DNA from: a virus | Virus record (IMG/VR): IMGVR_UViG_3300045988_072096 | Reading direction: 5' to 3' (one strand) | DNA: 64,000 bases | Shown here: piece after piece, positions 1-64,000 of the stretch | Layout of the letters: every line of letters begins with the position of its first letter | How positions within the stretch are numbered: position 1 is the stretch's first letter | The notes under the pieces: generated by a model | What the model saw: the letters and a program-made list of their open reading frames with translations, nothing else | What the model was told of the DNA's origin: nothing | Databases searched by the model: none | Translations under genes and position numbers: made by a program

Positions 1-3000
1 CTAGACGTAGCGCCTATTTGAGGGAGTCTGTTATCGTATTCATGCAAGAATCCTATATTAGACCACGCTTCTTGCATTGTTTCCATAAGTTTGGTGTAAT
101 AGTTGTTTAAATCTTCATTTTTTGCAATTTGTTGTGCAATAGGATTAGTGTAAGATACACTACCACGACCAATCGTATTGTCAGTAAACGGCTACATTGT
201 TACTTTTGATGTTTCGTCAAATCTGGTATCAACCCAATTAGGATCGCTATTTTCAGCATCCAACTTAGAGTATAATTGCGTAGGCTGTTTTACTAATGCA
301 TCTATCCATTTGCCATCAATGCTGACTTTACTAGCTTTAGGTGCAGTAATAGTAAAGATACTAAGCGGTTTTAATGTATTATCGTTTACGTCTTTGAACA
401 TGAATTTTGCTATTTCCTATTGTACTCTAAGTCCGTTGTTTGGATTATTAGGGTGTTCGCGCTCTATGCGCAGTCTAATAGACTGTTCTATTTTCTGTAT
501 CCACGGTGTTTTTAATCCAAATTTATCTTCGTACTAAGCAGAGATTTTTCCAAGTAATTCAGCGTATCTTTCAGCCTAGTCTTTTGATACTTTATTACCT
601 TTAGATATTTTATATCTTTCTTTGGAGATTTGTTCATCAAGTTTTTTAAGATTTTCAAAGAACGGTTCATAGCCATCACGAATTTTTCCATTCTCCAAAT
701 CAAATACCTTTTCAATATTAGGATACGAAATACCTTTTAATTTTATCAGAGACATAAGTTTTCTACGCTTATTCTACAAATCCTCAAGAACTTCTGATGT
801 CCTGTTTCCAAATATTTTTGCAATTTCGTCCCATATTTTTGGGTTAACTGCAAGATACGTATTATTCTGTTCAAATAATTGTTTATTTGCAGCGTGTTCA
901 TATGCAGCTTTATATGATTCTTCGTCTAATTTATAAGCGACTTTATCTTTTATAAACATTTGCCATGCAGATAATTCATCTGCAATCTTACGTTCTACAG
1001 TACCGATTTCTTTTTCTTTTCCATTAGAATCGTATATTGAAGATAATTGAGCCTTTTGTCTCTCTAATCTAATCAACTCACGTTGTTTCGATATTGGCAG
1101 CAAATCTGTTCTTGTAGGCCCTTCTGGAAGAGATTTTCTGATGGCATTTATATCTCGATCTATTTGTTCCTAAGCTTTCAACGTAACAGATGACAACATA
1201 TCGATTCGTTTATCGTAGTAAGCCTTAGTAAATCTACGAACACAATGCGTAGCATACCAGTCATTTAATTTGTGACGATATTTCTTTTCAATATCTTCGC
1301 ATCCATCTGGAAACATTATTTGTCCATCATCATCGAATTGTAATTCATAGTCTTTATTACCTAATCTATCTGCTATCTGCTATTCTACGCCGTCTTTTCC
1401 CTATAATATGACGTTTAAGAATTTATTAAGCTCTCCATAAAACTTTCCGTAGTTGATTTCAGTAACCCAGTTACCAGTAAATCCGTTTTCATCTTTTTCC
1501 ATGAAAAGTTTTTCAACATTAGTTATGAGCTCCTTCCATTTACCTCCATTTGCTGCGATGGCTTTTTTACGGAGAATATTTAGTTCTGTACCACGCTTTT
1601 TGACTTCATTATTTCTATCATTAGTAATGGTATTTATAATATCTCCAAGCATTCTAATGACAGGTGAATTTACATGCTGAGTTAGTCCAACAAATACCTG
1701 GAACACATTCATATCTCCAAATACATTTTGGTCTTCTATCCAAGTATGCATACTATATTTCATACGTTCCTTTAAATCGGTAGAAAGGTTAACGTTTTTA
1801 TCAACATAATCATCAACAAATGCATAAATCTGTTTAGATATTGCATTTTCATACAATTGCTCACAATCAGCGATAATACTTTCTATTCCAGCTTGTGATT
1901 GTGTGCCCTTTAACATATCTAACAAATGCTGTTTAACTTCTTTTCCGTAGTATAATTCAAATGTTGGATCTGCTAATGCGCGGTTTAATTTAGATATAAC
2001 ATTTCTATAGAATTCAATCGTATTTTGCTTATACTCCTGTAAATCTTTAAACGTTATTTCTTTATCTTGAATTCCTTCTTTTCCTTGCTCATTTATATCA
2101 AGATACTGTATTCTGGTTTCTCCAGTATTTGGATCGACTATTTCTCTATAACACAGTCGTTTATACTTACCCAATTCTGCAGCACGTAAGATATTTATCA
2201 TCTCTTCTATTTCGTCAAACGCTCTTTCTGCAAATCTTGTTATCAGCTTAACATTCAAATCAATTTCTCCACCAGTATGCGACATATCGCGTTTATCTTG
2301 GTAAGATAGACGCTTTTTATTTAGATCTTTGACAAATGCTTCACGTTGAACACGTATTCCTTCAACAAACTTTCTAACCTCTTCTTCTGCTAATTGCATA
2401 TTCATCAAGGTTATAGGATTTTCCTAGGTCTTACGGTAAGATTTATTTCTAGATATCGTTCCTGTTATAATATTTTTTATAGCACTTTGTACTTTGTCAC
2501 CAAGAAGCGCCTAATATTCTGGATTATTACGAGCCTATATTCCTTCATGTTTAGCTTCTTTCATTAACGCTTTTATGTCTTTCTTTTTGAACATTCGCTA
2601 ATCGGCCATTTTAAATAACAAACGCTCTTTTTCGTTCATTTTTTGTTGCTCGTTTATTGCGAATGCTATAGCCATATTATTTAATAAAGCATTGCGTGTA
2701 AGACTATTGCGTATTTTAAATGTTTTATATAACATTGACCCAAATCTAGTCCAAAAATGTGCAAAGAATGAATCGTTGTTTGCATAATCCATGAACTAAT
2801 TGTCCATAGTTTTCATAGTAAGTAGATCGACTAAAGTTTCTTCACGTTCTTCGTCAGTCATTCCTTCTTTATTTACAGCACGTAATGCTTCTTGTACCAG
2901 TTTACTGCGCCAAAACATACGTAAATAATGGTGAGCCATCTCATGATTAAAAGTAGATGGGTCTGCTGAATTCAAAGCTATTCCTATTATATGATGCGCC

Positions 3001-5132
3001 ATAGTCGATTTGGTATTATAATCATAATATCCATTTGCATCATCTAGATATTCAAAGAATTGAACTAATAGCGAATCCTTCCCGTCTGCTGTCTTCCATG
3101 TGCCGTCTGACTATCTATGTAATCCAAATGCTGCTGCTAATCGTAACTATGTAGATTGCATTATTTTGCTTTGTTGCTATTCTACAAATTTATATCTAGC
3201 GTCTTCTACAGCCTACATAATGTCCGTATTTGGATCTTTTTCCAATCTTTCTTTTACAGCTTCTACTACAAAATCATCTTCTGTTTGAGATAGTTTTGTT
3301 AAGATAGTTTCTGTTTCAGAGTCCTATTGAGATTCAGACTCAGTAGATTCAGAGTCAAGTAATTCGTCTACATTTATGGAATCATCCGCATACTTTGATA
3401 CAGCCTGTTTTGCAATTTCCTATGATTGATCGAATGTATATCCATTATTATCCAAAATCTATAATACAACGCCTTCAATCTAAGATTGTGAGTTTTTATG
3501 AATAGAGTTGTCGATAATAGATACAACATTTTCTAAAGCGTTATTAAATTTATTTTCATCATACGCAGGAATATATTTAAGTAATTCCCTAAAGTTTGGA
3601 TTTGATACAAATTCTGCAATGAACTCGTGTTCGTTTTTAAGTCCATATACGTCGAGCATTGAAAAATATCTTGATTTATTAGCATTGTCGTATGCATTTA
3701 GGTAATCTACATATCCTCTAAGTACTGCTTTTATTTTAGGGTGCTCGTCTATATATCTACTAGTAACATAATGTACCGCTTCGTGTATTATAATATTACT
3801 TATGTGCGTATAACTACGAACGTTATTATTTAACGATATGACTTGCCCGTCTTCATCGTAGGAACAAACGCCACCGATAGATTCGTATTGTTCATTGAAT
3901 TTAAAAAAATAAACTTTACCGTTTGTATATCGTTTCAACGTACTAAGCAAACTACCAATATAAGTTTTTTGTTTGCCTTCCGGAGTAAAATTATAAATAA
4001 TATTTACCAGATTGGATAGCGAATTTTCTTTTTTCAATAATCCTCTAACGAAGTCAATATTATATTTATCTTCAAATATAGCAGAGTCTCTTGCGTTTTC
4101 ATATATAGCACGAGAGTTCTTAGCTAAAGAATTATCGTATATAGAAGCATATTTAACAAACTAGTTATATAATTTGTTTTTTATCTTATCTGAAACATTT
4201 GGTTTAATATCTACTATCTACTTAATTCTTTGCAATTTGTTATATTTTTGCTACAAAGCCATTTTATGTAAATTATGGCCTTCTATGAATATCTGTATCG
4301 CAGTATAAGCTTTGCCTTTTTGAGTCATTAATTGATGTTTATAATGTCCAAAATACTTATTAAGCTGTGCTTCAGTTATACCTGCTTTAAACAAATTTGG
4401 AAAGAATTGTCGTATTCTCTATTGTGTTATTATATCATAATCAGATATATCAGTAGTGTGTTTTCTTAAGAACGATAGCATGTTTTGGACATACCATTCT
4501 CCATAAACAGACGAATTGTCAAGCTATTTTTTATACTCAGATATTTTTTCCTAAAGTACTGGTTGTAAATTTTGACATATATAGTCTATTCTATTGTACA
4601 CATCGTCTAATGATACGTCACCTTCTTGTACACCATCTAATTCATCTCTTGTAAATAAACCTACTCCAAGTAAATCTCTTACGTAGTCATTGTATCTTAC
4701 TAAAAAATTACGATAATTGTCTACATCTTGCAGTTTTCTTAGTTTACCTTTTGTTATTCTAAGTTTACTAACAAAATTAACGTAATAATCCAATAAATCT
4801 TCTGGTATATGTTTTTCTATCATTCCAGAAAGTGGTTCCCTATTCTCATCTTGGAATACTGTATCCATATTAAACCAGTCACCAAATTTACTAAGGAACT
4901 ATTTTGTGAACACTTTAGCTTTTGAAGCAATTGCTCCAGCTATCATTCCACCATGTATTTTAAGTAGGTCTTGAAATAGTATAGAAGGCTCCCCATTGGG
5001 AGCCATGTCTATACTGTTTCCATTATTTTTAGACCATATATCGTAGGCACCTACTTCTCCTACAACGTCTTTAATCTAATTAAATTTCTCAGCAACTTGT
5101 GGTCTACTGAGTATTGGACACATTATTGCCAT
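1..5132 (-). CDS. Very large virion-associated protein, 3' end cut by the window edge (at least ~1,710 codons). It has two zincin-type HExxH motifs and requires TAG read-through.
   Basis: The seven listed minus ORFs 192..401, 774..1103, 1401..2408, 2598..2792, 2796..3002, 3480..4037 and 4551..4868 all share one frame (end coordinate = 2 mod 3). I walked every gap in that frame and found only plus-strand 'cta' (TAG), with no TAA or TGA. The ATG at 5132 lies 5 nt after the TAA of the upstream giant ORF. HEMAH is encoded at about 2928-2945 and HEAVH at 3771-3785. Confidence 0.7.
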
Positions 5133-61642: not shown

Positions 61643-61869
61643 ATAGTCCTTCACATTATAGTTACCTAAAGAAGTTATGCGGTATTGAAGTAATAGACAT
61701 TACTAGACATATGGATTTTGACCTCGGTAATGCTATAAAGTACATCTTAAGAGCTGGTCATAAAACTGAAGAAGGATACGACGATAATGCTAAGACCATA
61801 GAAGATCTAAAGAAAGCAGTTTGGTATATTAACGATAAAATTAAAACACTAGAACATGAAACTAATTGA
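61618..61869 (+). CDS. DUF3310-family phage protein, 83 aa
   Basis: The pattern NSPSHY...IEVIDI...GNAIKYILRAGHK...EDLKKAVWYI is typical of DUF3310. Confidence 0.65.
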   Translation: MQEKEDKVNSPSHYSYLKKLCGIEVIDITRHMDFDLGNAIKYILRAGHKTEEGYDDNAKTIEDLKKAVWYINDKIKTLEHETN

Positions 61870-63526
61870 GCAATCATCAGAGATTTGTAAAACACACGGT
61901 TATACATTACAAGATATCTATAAAGATATAGAGCGTGCCGCTAGAGTATCATATAAATCTGAAGACAAGATAACTGAAGATAGCGCTGAAAAGATGGTTG
62001 AACGCCTCATAAATATGAAGCACTATAGCCCACTAGAGTTTGGAACCATTTACTTGAGAGTAAGAGATGTCGTATGCTGTGGAATAATATCAGAGGCACA
62101 CGCAGAAGGATGTATGGGTAAGCCATGGATACGTGTAAATAAAGTAGATGAAGTAGAGTCAGATGGCAGATATGTTACAAACTACTATATAACTACTAAT
62201 TATAGATTTATAGTAGAAAATAAACTGGGAAAGTTACTACAATATATGTGTGAACCAACTGAATATCACAAAAGACGTACTACAGTTAAATTTATAACAA
62301 ATAGAGCAATGACACACGAGTTAGTACGTCATAGATCTATGTCATTTATGCAGGAATCACAGCGATATGTATCAAGTTGCAGTAAACGTTATATTGGCGA
62401 GTATAATTGTGATAATGTAGACGACATAATTTCTGCATATATAAACGGTTTCTCAATGCGAGAAATATCAGATAATAGTTGTTTTACCGAGTGGCAAATT
62501 AGATGTATACTAAAAGAAAACAATGTACAAATAAGAGGCTTTGGTTGTCGAGGGATTGTTGATACCGATTACTTTAAACAAATAGACACAGCAGAAAAAG
62601 CTTATTTGTTGGGTATAATTCAAACAGACGGTAGCATTGTTAATAAACCAGGACATAAAAGTGTGCATATAACACAACATAAAGATTATTCTTGGTATAT
62701 AAAAGACATGTTGTTACAAATAAAAGACAAGATAACCTGTTCTCCGGATGGAGATTGTACACATTTACAATTTGGTTCAAACGATATTGTGGACGATCTC
62801 ACATCTATTGGAATTATTCCAAATAAAACGTATGATCAATCGTCGGAAGATATAGATAAATTATGGAATAGTATTCCTGAAGAATATAAGCCTGATTTTA
62901 TCAGAGGTTTAATTGATGGCGATGGGTGGGTTAGATACTTTATTCAAAAAAGAGGTGTTAATGAAAGCTGTAATATCGGATTTTGTTCGCATAACCAACA
63001 TATTGTAGATATATTAATCGACTATATAGATAAGAAATATTTCTATAAGTGTACTAAACAGTATGATGGATCTACATTTAAGCTCAGTATTTCTGATTAT
63101 AATAAATCAATAGAGATTGGCAAAGATTTATATAAGCATTTTAAGTATCCATTCGGACATCCAAAAAAAGCCGCCACTTGGATAAAAAGAATCGGAGACA
63201 CTTATCCATATGCGTCATATAAAGATTTAAAATTTCAAATGGTTGTTCCAGCATTCGATTTATCACCAATAGAAAAATTTACATATCTAAGTACACTGGA
63301 TAATATTGAAGATGCTTACGTCTCGTTGAGATCATTAGGCTTTAAACCGCAACAGGCTCGTATGATACTCCCAAATGCTACTAAAACAGAAATATATATG
63401 TGTGGATTTAATGATGATTGGGATCATTTCTTTGACCTAAGAGATAAATACGTAGTAGATCCTCAGATGTACGATCTAGCACATAAGTTACACCTAGAAT
63501 TCATAGAGAAAGGTAAATGCAAATGA
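61856..63526 (+). CDS. thyX: Flavin-dependent thymidylate synthase ThyX carrying an in-frame insertion of about 283 aa
   Basis: The ThyX signature ELVRHRSMSFMQESQRY is at aa 155-171. The C-terminal ThyX portion resumes around KFQMVVPAF...ARMILPNATKTEIYMCGFNDDWDHFFDLR. It is a single uninterrupted 556-aa ORF ending in TGA. Confidence 0.8.
   Translation: MKLIEQSSEICKTHGYTLQDIYKDIERAARVSYKSEDKITEDSAEKMVERLINMKHYSPLEFGTIYLRVRDVVCCGIISEAHAEGCMGKPWIRVNKVDEVESDGRYVTNYYITTNYRFIVENKLGKLLQYMCEPTEYHKRRTTVKFITNRAMTHELVRHRSMSFMQESQRYVSSCSKRYIGEYNCDNVDDIISAYINGFSMREISDNSCFTEWQIRCILKENNVQIRGFGCRGIVDTDYFKQIDTAEKAYLLGIIQTDGSIVNKPGHKSVHITQHKDYSWYIKDMLLQIKDKITCSPDGDCTHLQFGSNDIVDDLTSIGIIPNKTYDQSSEDIDKLWNSIPEEYKPDFIRGLIDGDGWVRYFIQKRGVNESCNIGFCSHNQHIVDILIDYIDKKYFYKCTKQYDGSTFKLSISDYNKSIEIGKDLYKHFKYPFGHPKKAATWIKRIGDTYPYASYKDLKFQMVVPAFDLSPIEKFTYLSTLDNIEDAYVSLRSLGFKPQQARMILPNATKTEIYMCGFNDDWDHFFDLRDKYVVDPQMYDLAHKLHLEFIEKGKCK
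62372..63220 (+). mobile_element. HTH plus double-LAGLIDADG endonuclease-like domain inserted in frame in thyX (approximate boundaries)
   Basis: An HTH-like segment ISAYINGFSMREISDNSCFTEWQIRCILKENNV is followed by the LAGLIDADG motifs AYLLGIIQTDGS and FIRGLIDGDGW. I could not find an intein block A (Cys/Ser-1) or a terminal HN-Cys/Ser/Thr. Confidence 0.65.
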
Positions 63527-63690: not shown

Positions 63691-63886
63691 AACATTACTA
63701 CAATTATCGGTCATAATTGGTATAGGTTTCTTTGTCGCCTGGGTAGTATCTCCAGATAAAAACGTAGAAACATATAGGAAATATATTAAAAATATAATCG
63801 AATCTACCGTAACTGATGCATTTAGTTTATATCCAGACCAGAAAGATGCGATAATATATATTAGAAAGAGATTATTGGGTAATTAA
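63683..63886 (+). CDS. Small membrane protein, 67 aa
   Basis: I prefer ATG 63683 (MIETLLQLSVIIGIGFFVAWVV...), which overlaps the previous stop, over the listed 63638 start. It has one TM helix and a TAA stop. Confidence 0.5.
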   Translation: MIETLLQLSVIIGIGFFVAWVVSPDKNVETYRKYIKNIIESTVTDAFSLYPDQKDAIIYIRKRLLGN

Positions 63887-63890
63887 TATA

Positions 63891-63925
63891 ATCCGGGTTA
63901 GCCTAGCTAGCTCGGATTTTTTTTG
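63891..63925 (+). terminator. Rho-independent terminator ending the plus-strand block
   Basis: An 11-bp stem atccgggttag / ctagctcggat (with G.U pairs) and a 5-nt loop is followed by T8 at 63918-63925. Confidence 0.7.
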
Positions 63926-64000
63926 TTTTTTATTTTTTAAAATTTTTTATTTTACGGGCATATAAAGAGGAAACAAAAGTTTTTTGTAATATGAGTGTAG

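Follow-up and report, generated by a model that had tools for sequence, protein, structure and literature searches.

In a viral DNA stretch of 64,000 nucleotides (nt) (IMG/VR record IMGVR_UViG_3300045988_072096; this whole stretch is hereafter called the window), the thymidylate synthase gene thyX of a crAss-like phage carries an in-frame insert that encodes a helix-turn-helix (HTH) module followed by a double-LAGLIDADG endonuclease. Sequence comparisons and structural modeling suggested that this insert is probably a mobile homing endonuclease gene that persists in thyX as an unspliced in-frame domain insertion, and not a degenerate intein. On balance, the family of phage elements to which it belongs, ThyX::LAGLIDADG, which appears to be mobile, widespread and anciently maintained, may well exemplify a third mode of residence in essential protein-coding genes besides introns and inteins, in which a nuclease is permanently housed as an unspliced in-frame domain in a permissive loop of the host protein, in this case next to the active site of an enzyme.

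The fusion is encoded by the sole long open reading frame (ORF) of its region (61856..63526, + strand; 556 amino acids (aa)), in which Pfam detected Thy1 (E 2.2e-28, in three stretches) and LAGLIDADG_3 (1.6e-6). The NCBIfam thyX score of the 556-aa protein was just under the cutoff (86.2 vs 87.9 bits) because the match is split; Pfam Thy1 lay above its own cutoff, and the protein shows the Thy1 domain, the RHRxxSxxxxSxR motif and the conserved downstream Arg (R502/R529) of ThyX. Protein and codon alignments with the uninterrupted ThyX of the phages cr130_1 (L001) and cr131_1 (L002) placed the insert between V172 and S454, that is, at aa 173-453 (62372-63214; 843 nt, 281 codons). The empty allele of cr130_1 reads CGT TAC GTA / GCA TAT GAT AAA GAT AAA TTC, the slash marking the insertion point (site: …CAAGAGTCGCAACGTTACGTA / GCATATGATAAAGATAAATTC…), and the occupied allele of the window reads CGA TAT GTA (TCA AGT … CCA TAT GCG) TCA TAT AAA GAT TTA AAA TTT, with the insert in parentheses. 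The initial annotation had given the insert as 62372-63220 and 283 aa: its start was exact, its end lay 6 nt too far and the length should be 281 aa, and it was right in placing the insert directly after the ThyX motif, the insertion point lying one codon downstream of that motif (…SQRYV172). In the other reading frames of 62372-63214, no ORF exceeds 56 aa. A foreign composition of the insert was rejected, since its GC content of 0.317 (0.238 at third codon positions, GC3) is near that of the flanks (0.33-0.35; GC3 0.24-0.26), which points to full amelioration, and no paralogues of the insert were found within the window.

Searches with the insert retrieved approximately 24 proteins that combine Thy1 with LAGLIDADG_3 (insert identity 37-94%), as well as approximately 35 free-standing relatives of 260-330 aa, several of them carrying Pfam HTH_23/HTH_7 together with LAGLIDADG_3. 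The alignment with the free-standing endonucleases covers the insert from its first to its last residue at 25-37% identity, and both share the order of a short N-terminal stretch, HTH, motif 1, motif 2 and C-terminal helix. The best-matching PHROG was phrog_4645 “endonuclease” (8e-29, profile positions 43-287 of 308). A PDB sequence profile search matched only endonuclease domains, among them I-Tsp061I (2dch, 8e-8) and I-DmoI/I-CreI proteins, and the intein PI-PfuI was matched solely within its endonuclease domain. Similarly, Foldseek on the AlphaFold model returned I-Tsp061I (template modeling (TM) score 0.66), I-AniI, I-DmoI, E-DreI and I-OnuI type enzymes, and the model shows the pseudo-dimeric alpha-beta-beta-alpha-beta-beta-alpha LAGLIDADG fold. 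The two LAGLIDADG motifs and the HTH recognized in the initial annotation are present. The motifs lie approximately 100 aa apart, each with a conserved terminal acidic residue; across 57 fusion and free-standing sequences, D258 and G259 are near-invariant and R350, G351, D354, D356 and G357 invariant. The HTH is predicted by AlphaFold as three helices (aa 188-196, 201-206 and 212-221), and, while direct Pfam matches at this position of the window are weak (HTH_58, E=0.055), the segment is shared with the free-standing relatives that bear HTH_23/HTH_7. Judging from this end-to-end homology, the insert is a complete homing endonuclease gene of the free-standing type minus its start and stop codons, and its full coverage by the endonuclease alignment leaves no residues for a Hint domain and no nucleotides for a ribozyme. 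The fusions share no conserved internal start codon where the insert begins, nor does a stop occur at its end, so that the nuclease could be produced only as part of the ThyX fusion. Embedded copies also share the extra motifs ITQHKDY and YPFGHPKK relative to the free-standing proteins; the latter may form an interface with ThyX or contribute to target recognition.

No signature of splicing was recovered at either the protein or the RNA level. Whether the query was the whole protein, the insert or both of its ends, neither Pfam nor NCBIfam gave a Hint or intein family at E<=10, and hidden Hint blocks, which profile searches might still have revealed according to the initial annotation, were rejected after Pfam, NCBIfam, PHROGs, the PDB sequence profile search and Foldseek yielded nothing beyond endonuclease or HTH matches. 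A V precedes the insert (…RYV) in 34/34 fusion proteins; the insert opens with S, G, K, A, R, D or N and closes with A, V, S or D, and the +1 residue is S, N, D, E or V, with no His-Asn and no conserved Cys/Ser/Thr at the junctions of these 34 fusions. As the junction residues vary and no known blocks occur, there is no sign of protein splicing chemistry. Of the features expected of an intein, only an in-frame insertion that is absent from homologs was found, and blocks A/B, the Hint fold and blocks F/G were not; as far as its sequence can tell, the element fails all intein-defining tests that were run, save being in frame. The earlier statement that the splicing blocks are lacking therefore held. 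With regard to RNA, an E-value scan with Rfam found no group I/II intron in thyX in 3 kb of the window and 8 homologous loci, and the folding of the junctions did not surpass that of shuffled controls (z 0.44 and 0.22). An intron-borne ORF normally ends inside the intron, and its frame need not continue into the 3' exon. An intron was rejected on the basis of these scans, the shuffle-like folding of the junctions and a frame that crosses the 3' junction. A transposon-like insertion was also rejected, as no direct or inverted repeats flank the insert and neither target-site duplications nor terminal inverted repeats were present.

The reading frame itself was followed in 14 fusion loci read at the DNA level (the window and 13 others, nine of which were obtained by tblastn and are independent of gene calling). 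It is open from the N-terminal part of ThyX through the nuclease into the C-terminal part in 13/14 loci. The exception is a close relative of the window (L008, contig ERZ941599 k127_149903), in which TAG TGA (approximately 2591-2596) replaces TAT ATA inside the nuclease, at the Y-I codons of DYID (approximately 63020-63025 in the window; L010, below, also has TAT ATA); the sequence past these stops is still conserved, and the contig ends 105 nt later. Selection was estimated by the Nei-Gojobori method between the window and a 98 kb IMG/VR contig with an intact fusion and a 94% identical insert (L010). The ratio of nonsynonymous to synonymous substitution rates (dN/dS) was 0.037 for the nuclease insert (dS 0.93), 0.014-0.13 for the conserved regions of the ThyX N-part outside a hypervariable stretch (dS 0.97-2.2) and 0.21 for the ThyX C-part (dS 0.62). 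These ratios indicate that the nuclease and both ThyX parts are all under purifying selection in one reading frame; they would not be given by a dead gene, and they suggest that the fusion is translated and maintained. In a 596-aa fusion (P0179), the LAGLIDADG motifs are degenerate (…GVMSDSYLV, …GLFDANHAP) while the frame through ThyX is intact. This nuclease looks dead yet retained in frame, as would be expected if selection protects translation of the downstream ThyX. Since the architecture recurs in dozens of independent sequences, it is evidently not a chance ORF. From its single sequence, the initial annotation had argued that a continuous frame excludes an intron ORF; that argument was too weak on its own and became strong with the conservation of the frame across many diverged loci and the absence of a ribozyme signal.

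Fusion and empty ThyX alike keep the residues of the ThyX motif: R158, S168 and R170 are invariant, whereas R160, S163 and Y171 are near-invariant; in the 3' part, R502, L505, W522, R529 and P536 are invariant. The equivalent residues of the Thermotoga maritima enzyme (Arg78, Arg80, Ser88 and Arg90) bind dUMP, and the region adjoins a flexible active-site loop of the tetrameric enzyme (PMC3498832); the insertion point lies two residues past the equivalent of Arg90. An AlphaFold2 model of the window protein, built from the 57-sequence alignment, had a mean predicted local distance difference test (pLDDT) of 90.5 and a predicted TM score (pTM) of 0.86, with dips only in the crAss-specific N-terminal loop and in the N-terminal linker of the insert, and a divergent fusion (P0022, approximately 40% identical) gave comparable values (pLDDT 90.3, pTM 0.84). 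The top BFVD match to the window model was the uninterrupted ThyX of phage cr126_1 (TM 0.76, normalized by target), in an alignment that spans the insert; because this protein superposes across the insert, the two ThyX segments are predicted to form the usual fold, from which the nuclease protrudes. A ThyA-type backup was not found in the window, the query being an Escherichia coli ThyA sequence. In one lineage of fusions (P0072, P0079, L092), the ThyX motif is degenerate (SRELNRVSPNNIAERSTRY), RHR having become RVS, and this ThyX may be inactive or repurposed; in L092 (214-1905), the fusion with this motif keeps the nuclease and an open 563-aa frame. The ORF that adjoins it (2053-3063, - strand) resembles a TnpB/IS605-type protein, by eye from its zinc-ribbon motif.

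The nearest database genomes of the window are crAss-like phages (Suoliviridae) from macaque feces, cr130_1 and cr131_1, which share neighboring genes with it and whose thyX genes (277 and 269 codons) are empty at the exact insertion point; the empty site that the initial annotation had proposed to seek in relatives is thus present. A HMMER search over 1.84 billion cluster representatives identified at least 35 clusters (50% identity) that span the ThyX-nuclease-ThyX junctions, all with an identical insertion site, in both crAss-type and short-type ThyX. The contigs that host fusions represent unrelated phage backbones and include crAss-like ones of approximately 95-100 kb, others of 144 and 168 kb and a 340 kb jumbo-phage contig, and one shows a Pol III alpha and NrdD neighborhood. 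Among 185,579 reference genomes, the single fusion match was a 3.5 kb contig binned with a Bacteroides metagenome-assembled genome. The fusion was absent from 50,697 GenBank phage records searched by tblastn with the insert and with a junction-spanning peptide, which matched free-standing or intron-borne endonucleases (39% identity or less) and plain ThyX. At least two architectures of the ThyX backbone carry the insert, namely the crAss type with its extra N-terminal module and the short canonical type. Most ThyX, including the closest relatives, have an empty site, and occupied and empty alleles occur in related genomes with a sporadic distribution. The initial annotation had also asked whether ThyX homologs normally carry a large insertion at this loop; those that do all carry the same endonuclease.

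Pairwise identities of nuclease and ThyX correlate (r = 0.58), and the nuclease is often far more similar between two fusions than the surrounding ThyX, as in P0004 (crAss-type ThyX) and P0005 (nuclease 84%, ThyX 58-70%) or P0061 and P0002 (nuclease 68%, ThyX 45-51%). In addition, the flank that follows the insert is common to all fusions whatever their backbone (x[YF][KG]DxKFxxIxP), compared with NYSKDKFGNELTFIxP in empty crAss ThyX. We read this shared flank as a co-conversion tract that may have been carried with the element; alternatively, the loop may have adapted to the insert. The retained catalytic Asp residues, the sporadic distribution and the disagreement between nuclease and ThyX identities point to an element that is still mobile. 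An enzyme still active in homing is likewise favored by the empty sites of the closest relatives, by the conservation of the Asp residues and by a target that encodes the best-conserved peptide of ThyX. Taken together, the element is probably still mobile.

We propose that a gene for an HTH and monomeric double-LAGLIDADG endonuclease of the free-standing type entered thyX by homing, in frame and one codon past the ThyX motif, and that nothing would remove it from the mRNA or the protein. The product would be a single 556-aa polypeptide in which both ThyX segments fold as a normal domain and the 281-aa nuclease projects from a loop beside the active site, and the fusion would keep thymidylate synthase activity. 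The nuclease, lacking a start, a stop and a promoter of its own, would be supplied through ThyX expression. During co-infection, the nuclease would cut the highly conserved motif-coding DNA of an uninterrupted thyX allele, and the insert, along with a short flanking stretch of thyX, would then be copied across as the break is repaired from the occupied allele. Several observations weigh against this scheme. The stops in L008 would truncate ThyX unless they reflect an assembly error or a decaying copy; the nuclease might be better conserved than ThyX because it is more tightly constrained, and not because of lateral transfer; it would be surprising for four 281-aa domains to be tolerated beside the active-site loop of a tetramer; the lineage with RVS in place of RHR implies that retention of ThyX activity is not universal; and the lack of known splicing signatures leaves room for some other mechanism.

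Among the other explanations considered, a degenerate intein that lost its Hint blocks, the initial annotation's first option, is very improbable. An in-frame LAGLIDADG insertion at the active-site motif of a nucleotide-metabolism enzyme is a typical intein location, and true ThyX inteins occur in actinobacteriophages (bioRxiv 10.1101/2025.01.02.630785; see also PMC5050341). However, the 75 residues before motif 1, where the N-terminal Hint half would be, are the HTH shared with free-standing endonucleases and hold no Hint remnant; the C terminus of the insert coincides with the ends of the free-standing proteins; profile and fold searches gave no Hint signal; and no intein block is retained in any of approximately 35 diverged lineages. 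It is also doubtful that the insert is removed without a known signature, whether by RNA excision, by a novel chemistry of protein splicing or by proteolysis that frees the nuclease and leaves ThyX in two pieces. Such removal could account for the fusion-specific motifs near both junctions (the invariant RYV before the insert and YPFGHPKK approximately 15 residues before its end), RNA excision would render the L008 stops harmless, and phage enzymes split by endonuclease genes can stay functional (PMC2988022). Yet the residues at the scissile positions are unconserved and mostly without nucleophiles, so that the novel splicing chemistry offered in the initial annotation found no support from junctions that vary freely; the endonuclease fold accounts for the whole insert without an extra domain; and no ribozyme signal was seen in 9 loci. 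RNA-level excision would moreover give no reason to keep the frame at the 3' junction, and yet 13/14 loci preserve it, including one with a dead nuclease.

A further explanation, which we regard as unlikely but the least so of these alternatives, is that the fusion is translated but is no longer a thymidylate synthase, the ORF being kept for expression or stabilization of the nuclease or for a new function as a DNA-targeted chimera. The location of the insert, two residues away from an Arg that binds dUMP and at the flexible loop of the active site, would fit this explanation, as would the lineage that lost part of the ThyX motif while keeping the ORF and the higher dN/dS of the downstream ThyX part than of the nuclease. 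On the other hand, the catalytic ThyX residues on both sides of the insert are invariant in most lineages despite ThyX identities of 40-50%, the dN/dS of 0.21 still denotes clear purifying selection, the ThyX fold is preserved in the model, and no alternative thymidylate synthase was detected in the window. Domestication, finally, would make the insert an immobile endonuclease-derived DNA-binding domain, for example one that tethers dTMP synthesis to DNA or regulates expression, like WhiA or LAGLIDADG maturases. Domesticated LAGLIDADG proteins usually lose their catalytic Asp residues. Here, almost all copies retain the catalytic Asp of both motifs, the insert is missing from the closest relatives of the window phage, several pairs show incongruence between nuclease and ThyX, and the shared flank resembles a co-conversion tract, all of which make domestication improbable, even though the correlated identities are consistent with long vertical co-descent, the length of the insert is near-constant (281 aa in 7/12 lineages), the nuclease is under very strong purifying selection and the high pTM suggests a fixed inter-domain geometry. 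The initial annotation had combined tolerance and domestication in one option; an endonuclease domain tolerated within ThyX is the part that is best supported, and domestication is the part that the retained Asp residues, the sporadic distribution and the incongruence disfavor. We therefore continue to prefer a mobile, unspliced domain insertion.

The features of the fusion gene are collected in the table below.

Table 1. Positions of thyX and of the elements of its insert in the window.
Feature	Position	Strand	Remarks
thyX 5' part, aa 1-172	61856..62371	+	Pfam Thy1, NCBIfam thyX; aligns with uninterrupted crAss ThyX
ThyX motif RHRSMSFMQESQRY, aa 158-171	62327..62368	+	dUMP-binding residues
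In-frame HTH and double-LAGLIDADG insert, aa 173-453	62372..63214	+	without own start or stop codon
Insert N-terminal linker SSCSKRYIGEYNCDN, aa 173-187	62372..62416	+	pLDDT block of the model approximately 69
Helix-turn-helix module, aa 188-226 (approximate)	62417..62533	+	three predicted helices
LAGLIDADG motif 1 AYLLGIIQTDGS, aa 249-260	62600..62635	+	candidate catalytic D258; Pfam LAGLIDADG_3
LAGLIDADG motif 2 FIRGLIDGDGW, aa 348-358	62897..62929	+	candidate catalytic D356
YPFGHPKK motif	63146..63169	+	kept in ThyX-embedded copies; Y..RKY in free-standing relatives
thyX 3' part, aa 454-556 and stop	63215..63526	+	in frame with insert; opens with fusion-specific flank SYKDLKFQMVVP; best Pfam Thy1 stretch aa 462-546

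Some further observations were made in thyX and its surroundings. The crAss-type-specific N-terminal module of ThyX (62054-62185, aa 67-110) is hypervariable relative to L010, with a dN of 0.79 and several indels, and the pLDDT of the model falls below 50 at aa 82-88 within it; the remainder of the thyX gene is conserved. In a 168 kb phage contig (L011, approximately 3500-3650), the C-terminal part of ThyX carries a second in-frame insertion of approximately 40 aa (…AKDYWGEYWLINKNTNKVDKVIPGRSWKDINSVPRSMYNIVERGFFP…) with no recognized domain. Downstream of thyX in the window, a weak Rfam match to L20_leader (63837-63929, + strand; 27.5 bits, far under the gathering score) coincides with a GC-rich hairpin and T run that is probably the intrinsic terminator of the thyX operon. 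The window also encodes a tRNA with anticodon CUA (57463-57536, - strand; tRNA-Pyl according to ARAGORN), that is, an amber suppressor, accompanied by tRNA-Ala (58168-58250, - strand) and tRNA-Val (58278-58353, - strand). crAss-like phages are known to carry suppressor tRNAs and to recode TAG in late genes (PMC7886860); no in-frame TAG occurs in the thyX fusion ORF of the window. In L009, a cluster of self-cleaving-ribozyme matches with an adjoining tRNA lies approximately 2 kb upstream of the thyX fusion (1247-1862, - strand), in which Hatchet (87.6 bits) is above its gathering score and Twister-P1 (50.6) and RAGATH-6 (111) are under theirs. In another fusion-bearing phage (L007, 6695-9467), nrdD lies in two pieces (411 aa with NRDD, and NRDD/Gly_radical) around a NUMOD4/HNH_3 endonuclease ORF; no Rfam intron was found in this region at E<=1, and the arrangement may reflect either an intron or a gene that has been split.

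Among known systems, the one that comes nearest is the ShiLan domain of a mycobacteriophage DNA methylase, an actively spreading insertion that is neither an intron nor an intein and is predicted to stay in the methylase as a projecting module (Arsenault, Gosselin and Gogarten 2025, PMC11855218). Like the ThyX insert, it is sporadic, is read through in frame within a phage enzyme gene and lacks intron and intein features. Unlike ShiLan, whose HNH nuclease lies in an alternative frame and whose in-frame product is a hairpin-like loop, the ThyX insert places a LAGLIDADG nuclease in the frame of the host gene as a folded 281-aa domain, hits its host gene at the catalytic motif, occurs in Bacteroidota-type and other large phages, and is supported by dozens of lineages together with dN/dS. 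With LAGLIDADG inteins it shares an in-frame endonuclease at a conserved active-site motif of a nucleotide-metabolism protein and the coexistence of empty and occupied alleles, but it has no Hint domain, no A/B/F/G residues and no conserved nucleophiles, and an N-terminal HTH and the nuclease span the insert. The free-standing phage HTH-LAGLIDADG endonucleases (phrog_4645; P0025-P0060) belong to the same family and have the same full-length domain order, but they are separate genes with a start and a stop, whereas the ThyX copy is joined to ThyX on either side. Endonuclease genes that split phage genes with retention of host function are represented by mobE in nrdA of Aeh1 and mobA in gene 60 of T4 (PMC2988022). 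These, too, reside in a nucleotide-metabolism gene at a functionally critical place and are associated with neither an intron nor an intein, but they yield two host polypeptides and a separate nuclease instead of one polypeptide. The known rps3-LAGLIDADG fusions are terminal, and WHO elements adjoin their target gene rather than lying inside it, whereas the ThyX insert is nested, with host sequence on both sides in one frame. These systems nevertheless resemble it in having a LAGLIDADG-type nuclease in or beside a host coding sequence without conventional splicing, as in the in-frame rps3 fusions in mitochondria of Ophiostomatales (Gibb and Hausner 2005, cited in PMC7902536) and the LAGLIDADG-type nucleases of the WHO/HO elements of yeasts (PMC7282813). 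A survey devoted to crAss-like phages mentioned “longer in-frame inserts” and recognized introns and inteins chiefly via endonuclease domains (PMC7886860), an approach that would not distinguish inserts of the ThyX type. Full-text literature searches found no description of a ThyX-LAGLIDADG fusion.

According to the textbook view, a homing endonuclease gene inside a conserved gene needs removal as an intron or intein, and otherwise lies between genes or splits its host. The ThyX family suggests that this rule is not absolute, as a whole 281-aa nuclease is apparently carried as a domain at a catalytic motif. If this is confirmed, intron and intein surveys that rely on endonuclease domains, such as that of crAss-like phages, may misclassify inserts of this kind. 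Confirmation would also mean that very large insertions can be accommodated in the active-site loop of ThyX, which is an antibacterial drug target, and that the fusion is a natural two-enzyme chimera in which expression of the nuclease is tied to that of the host gene.

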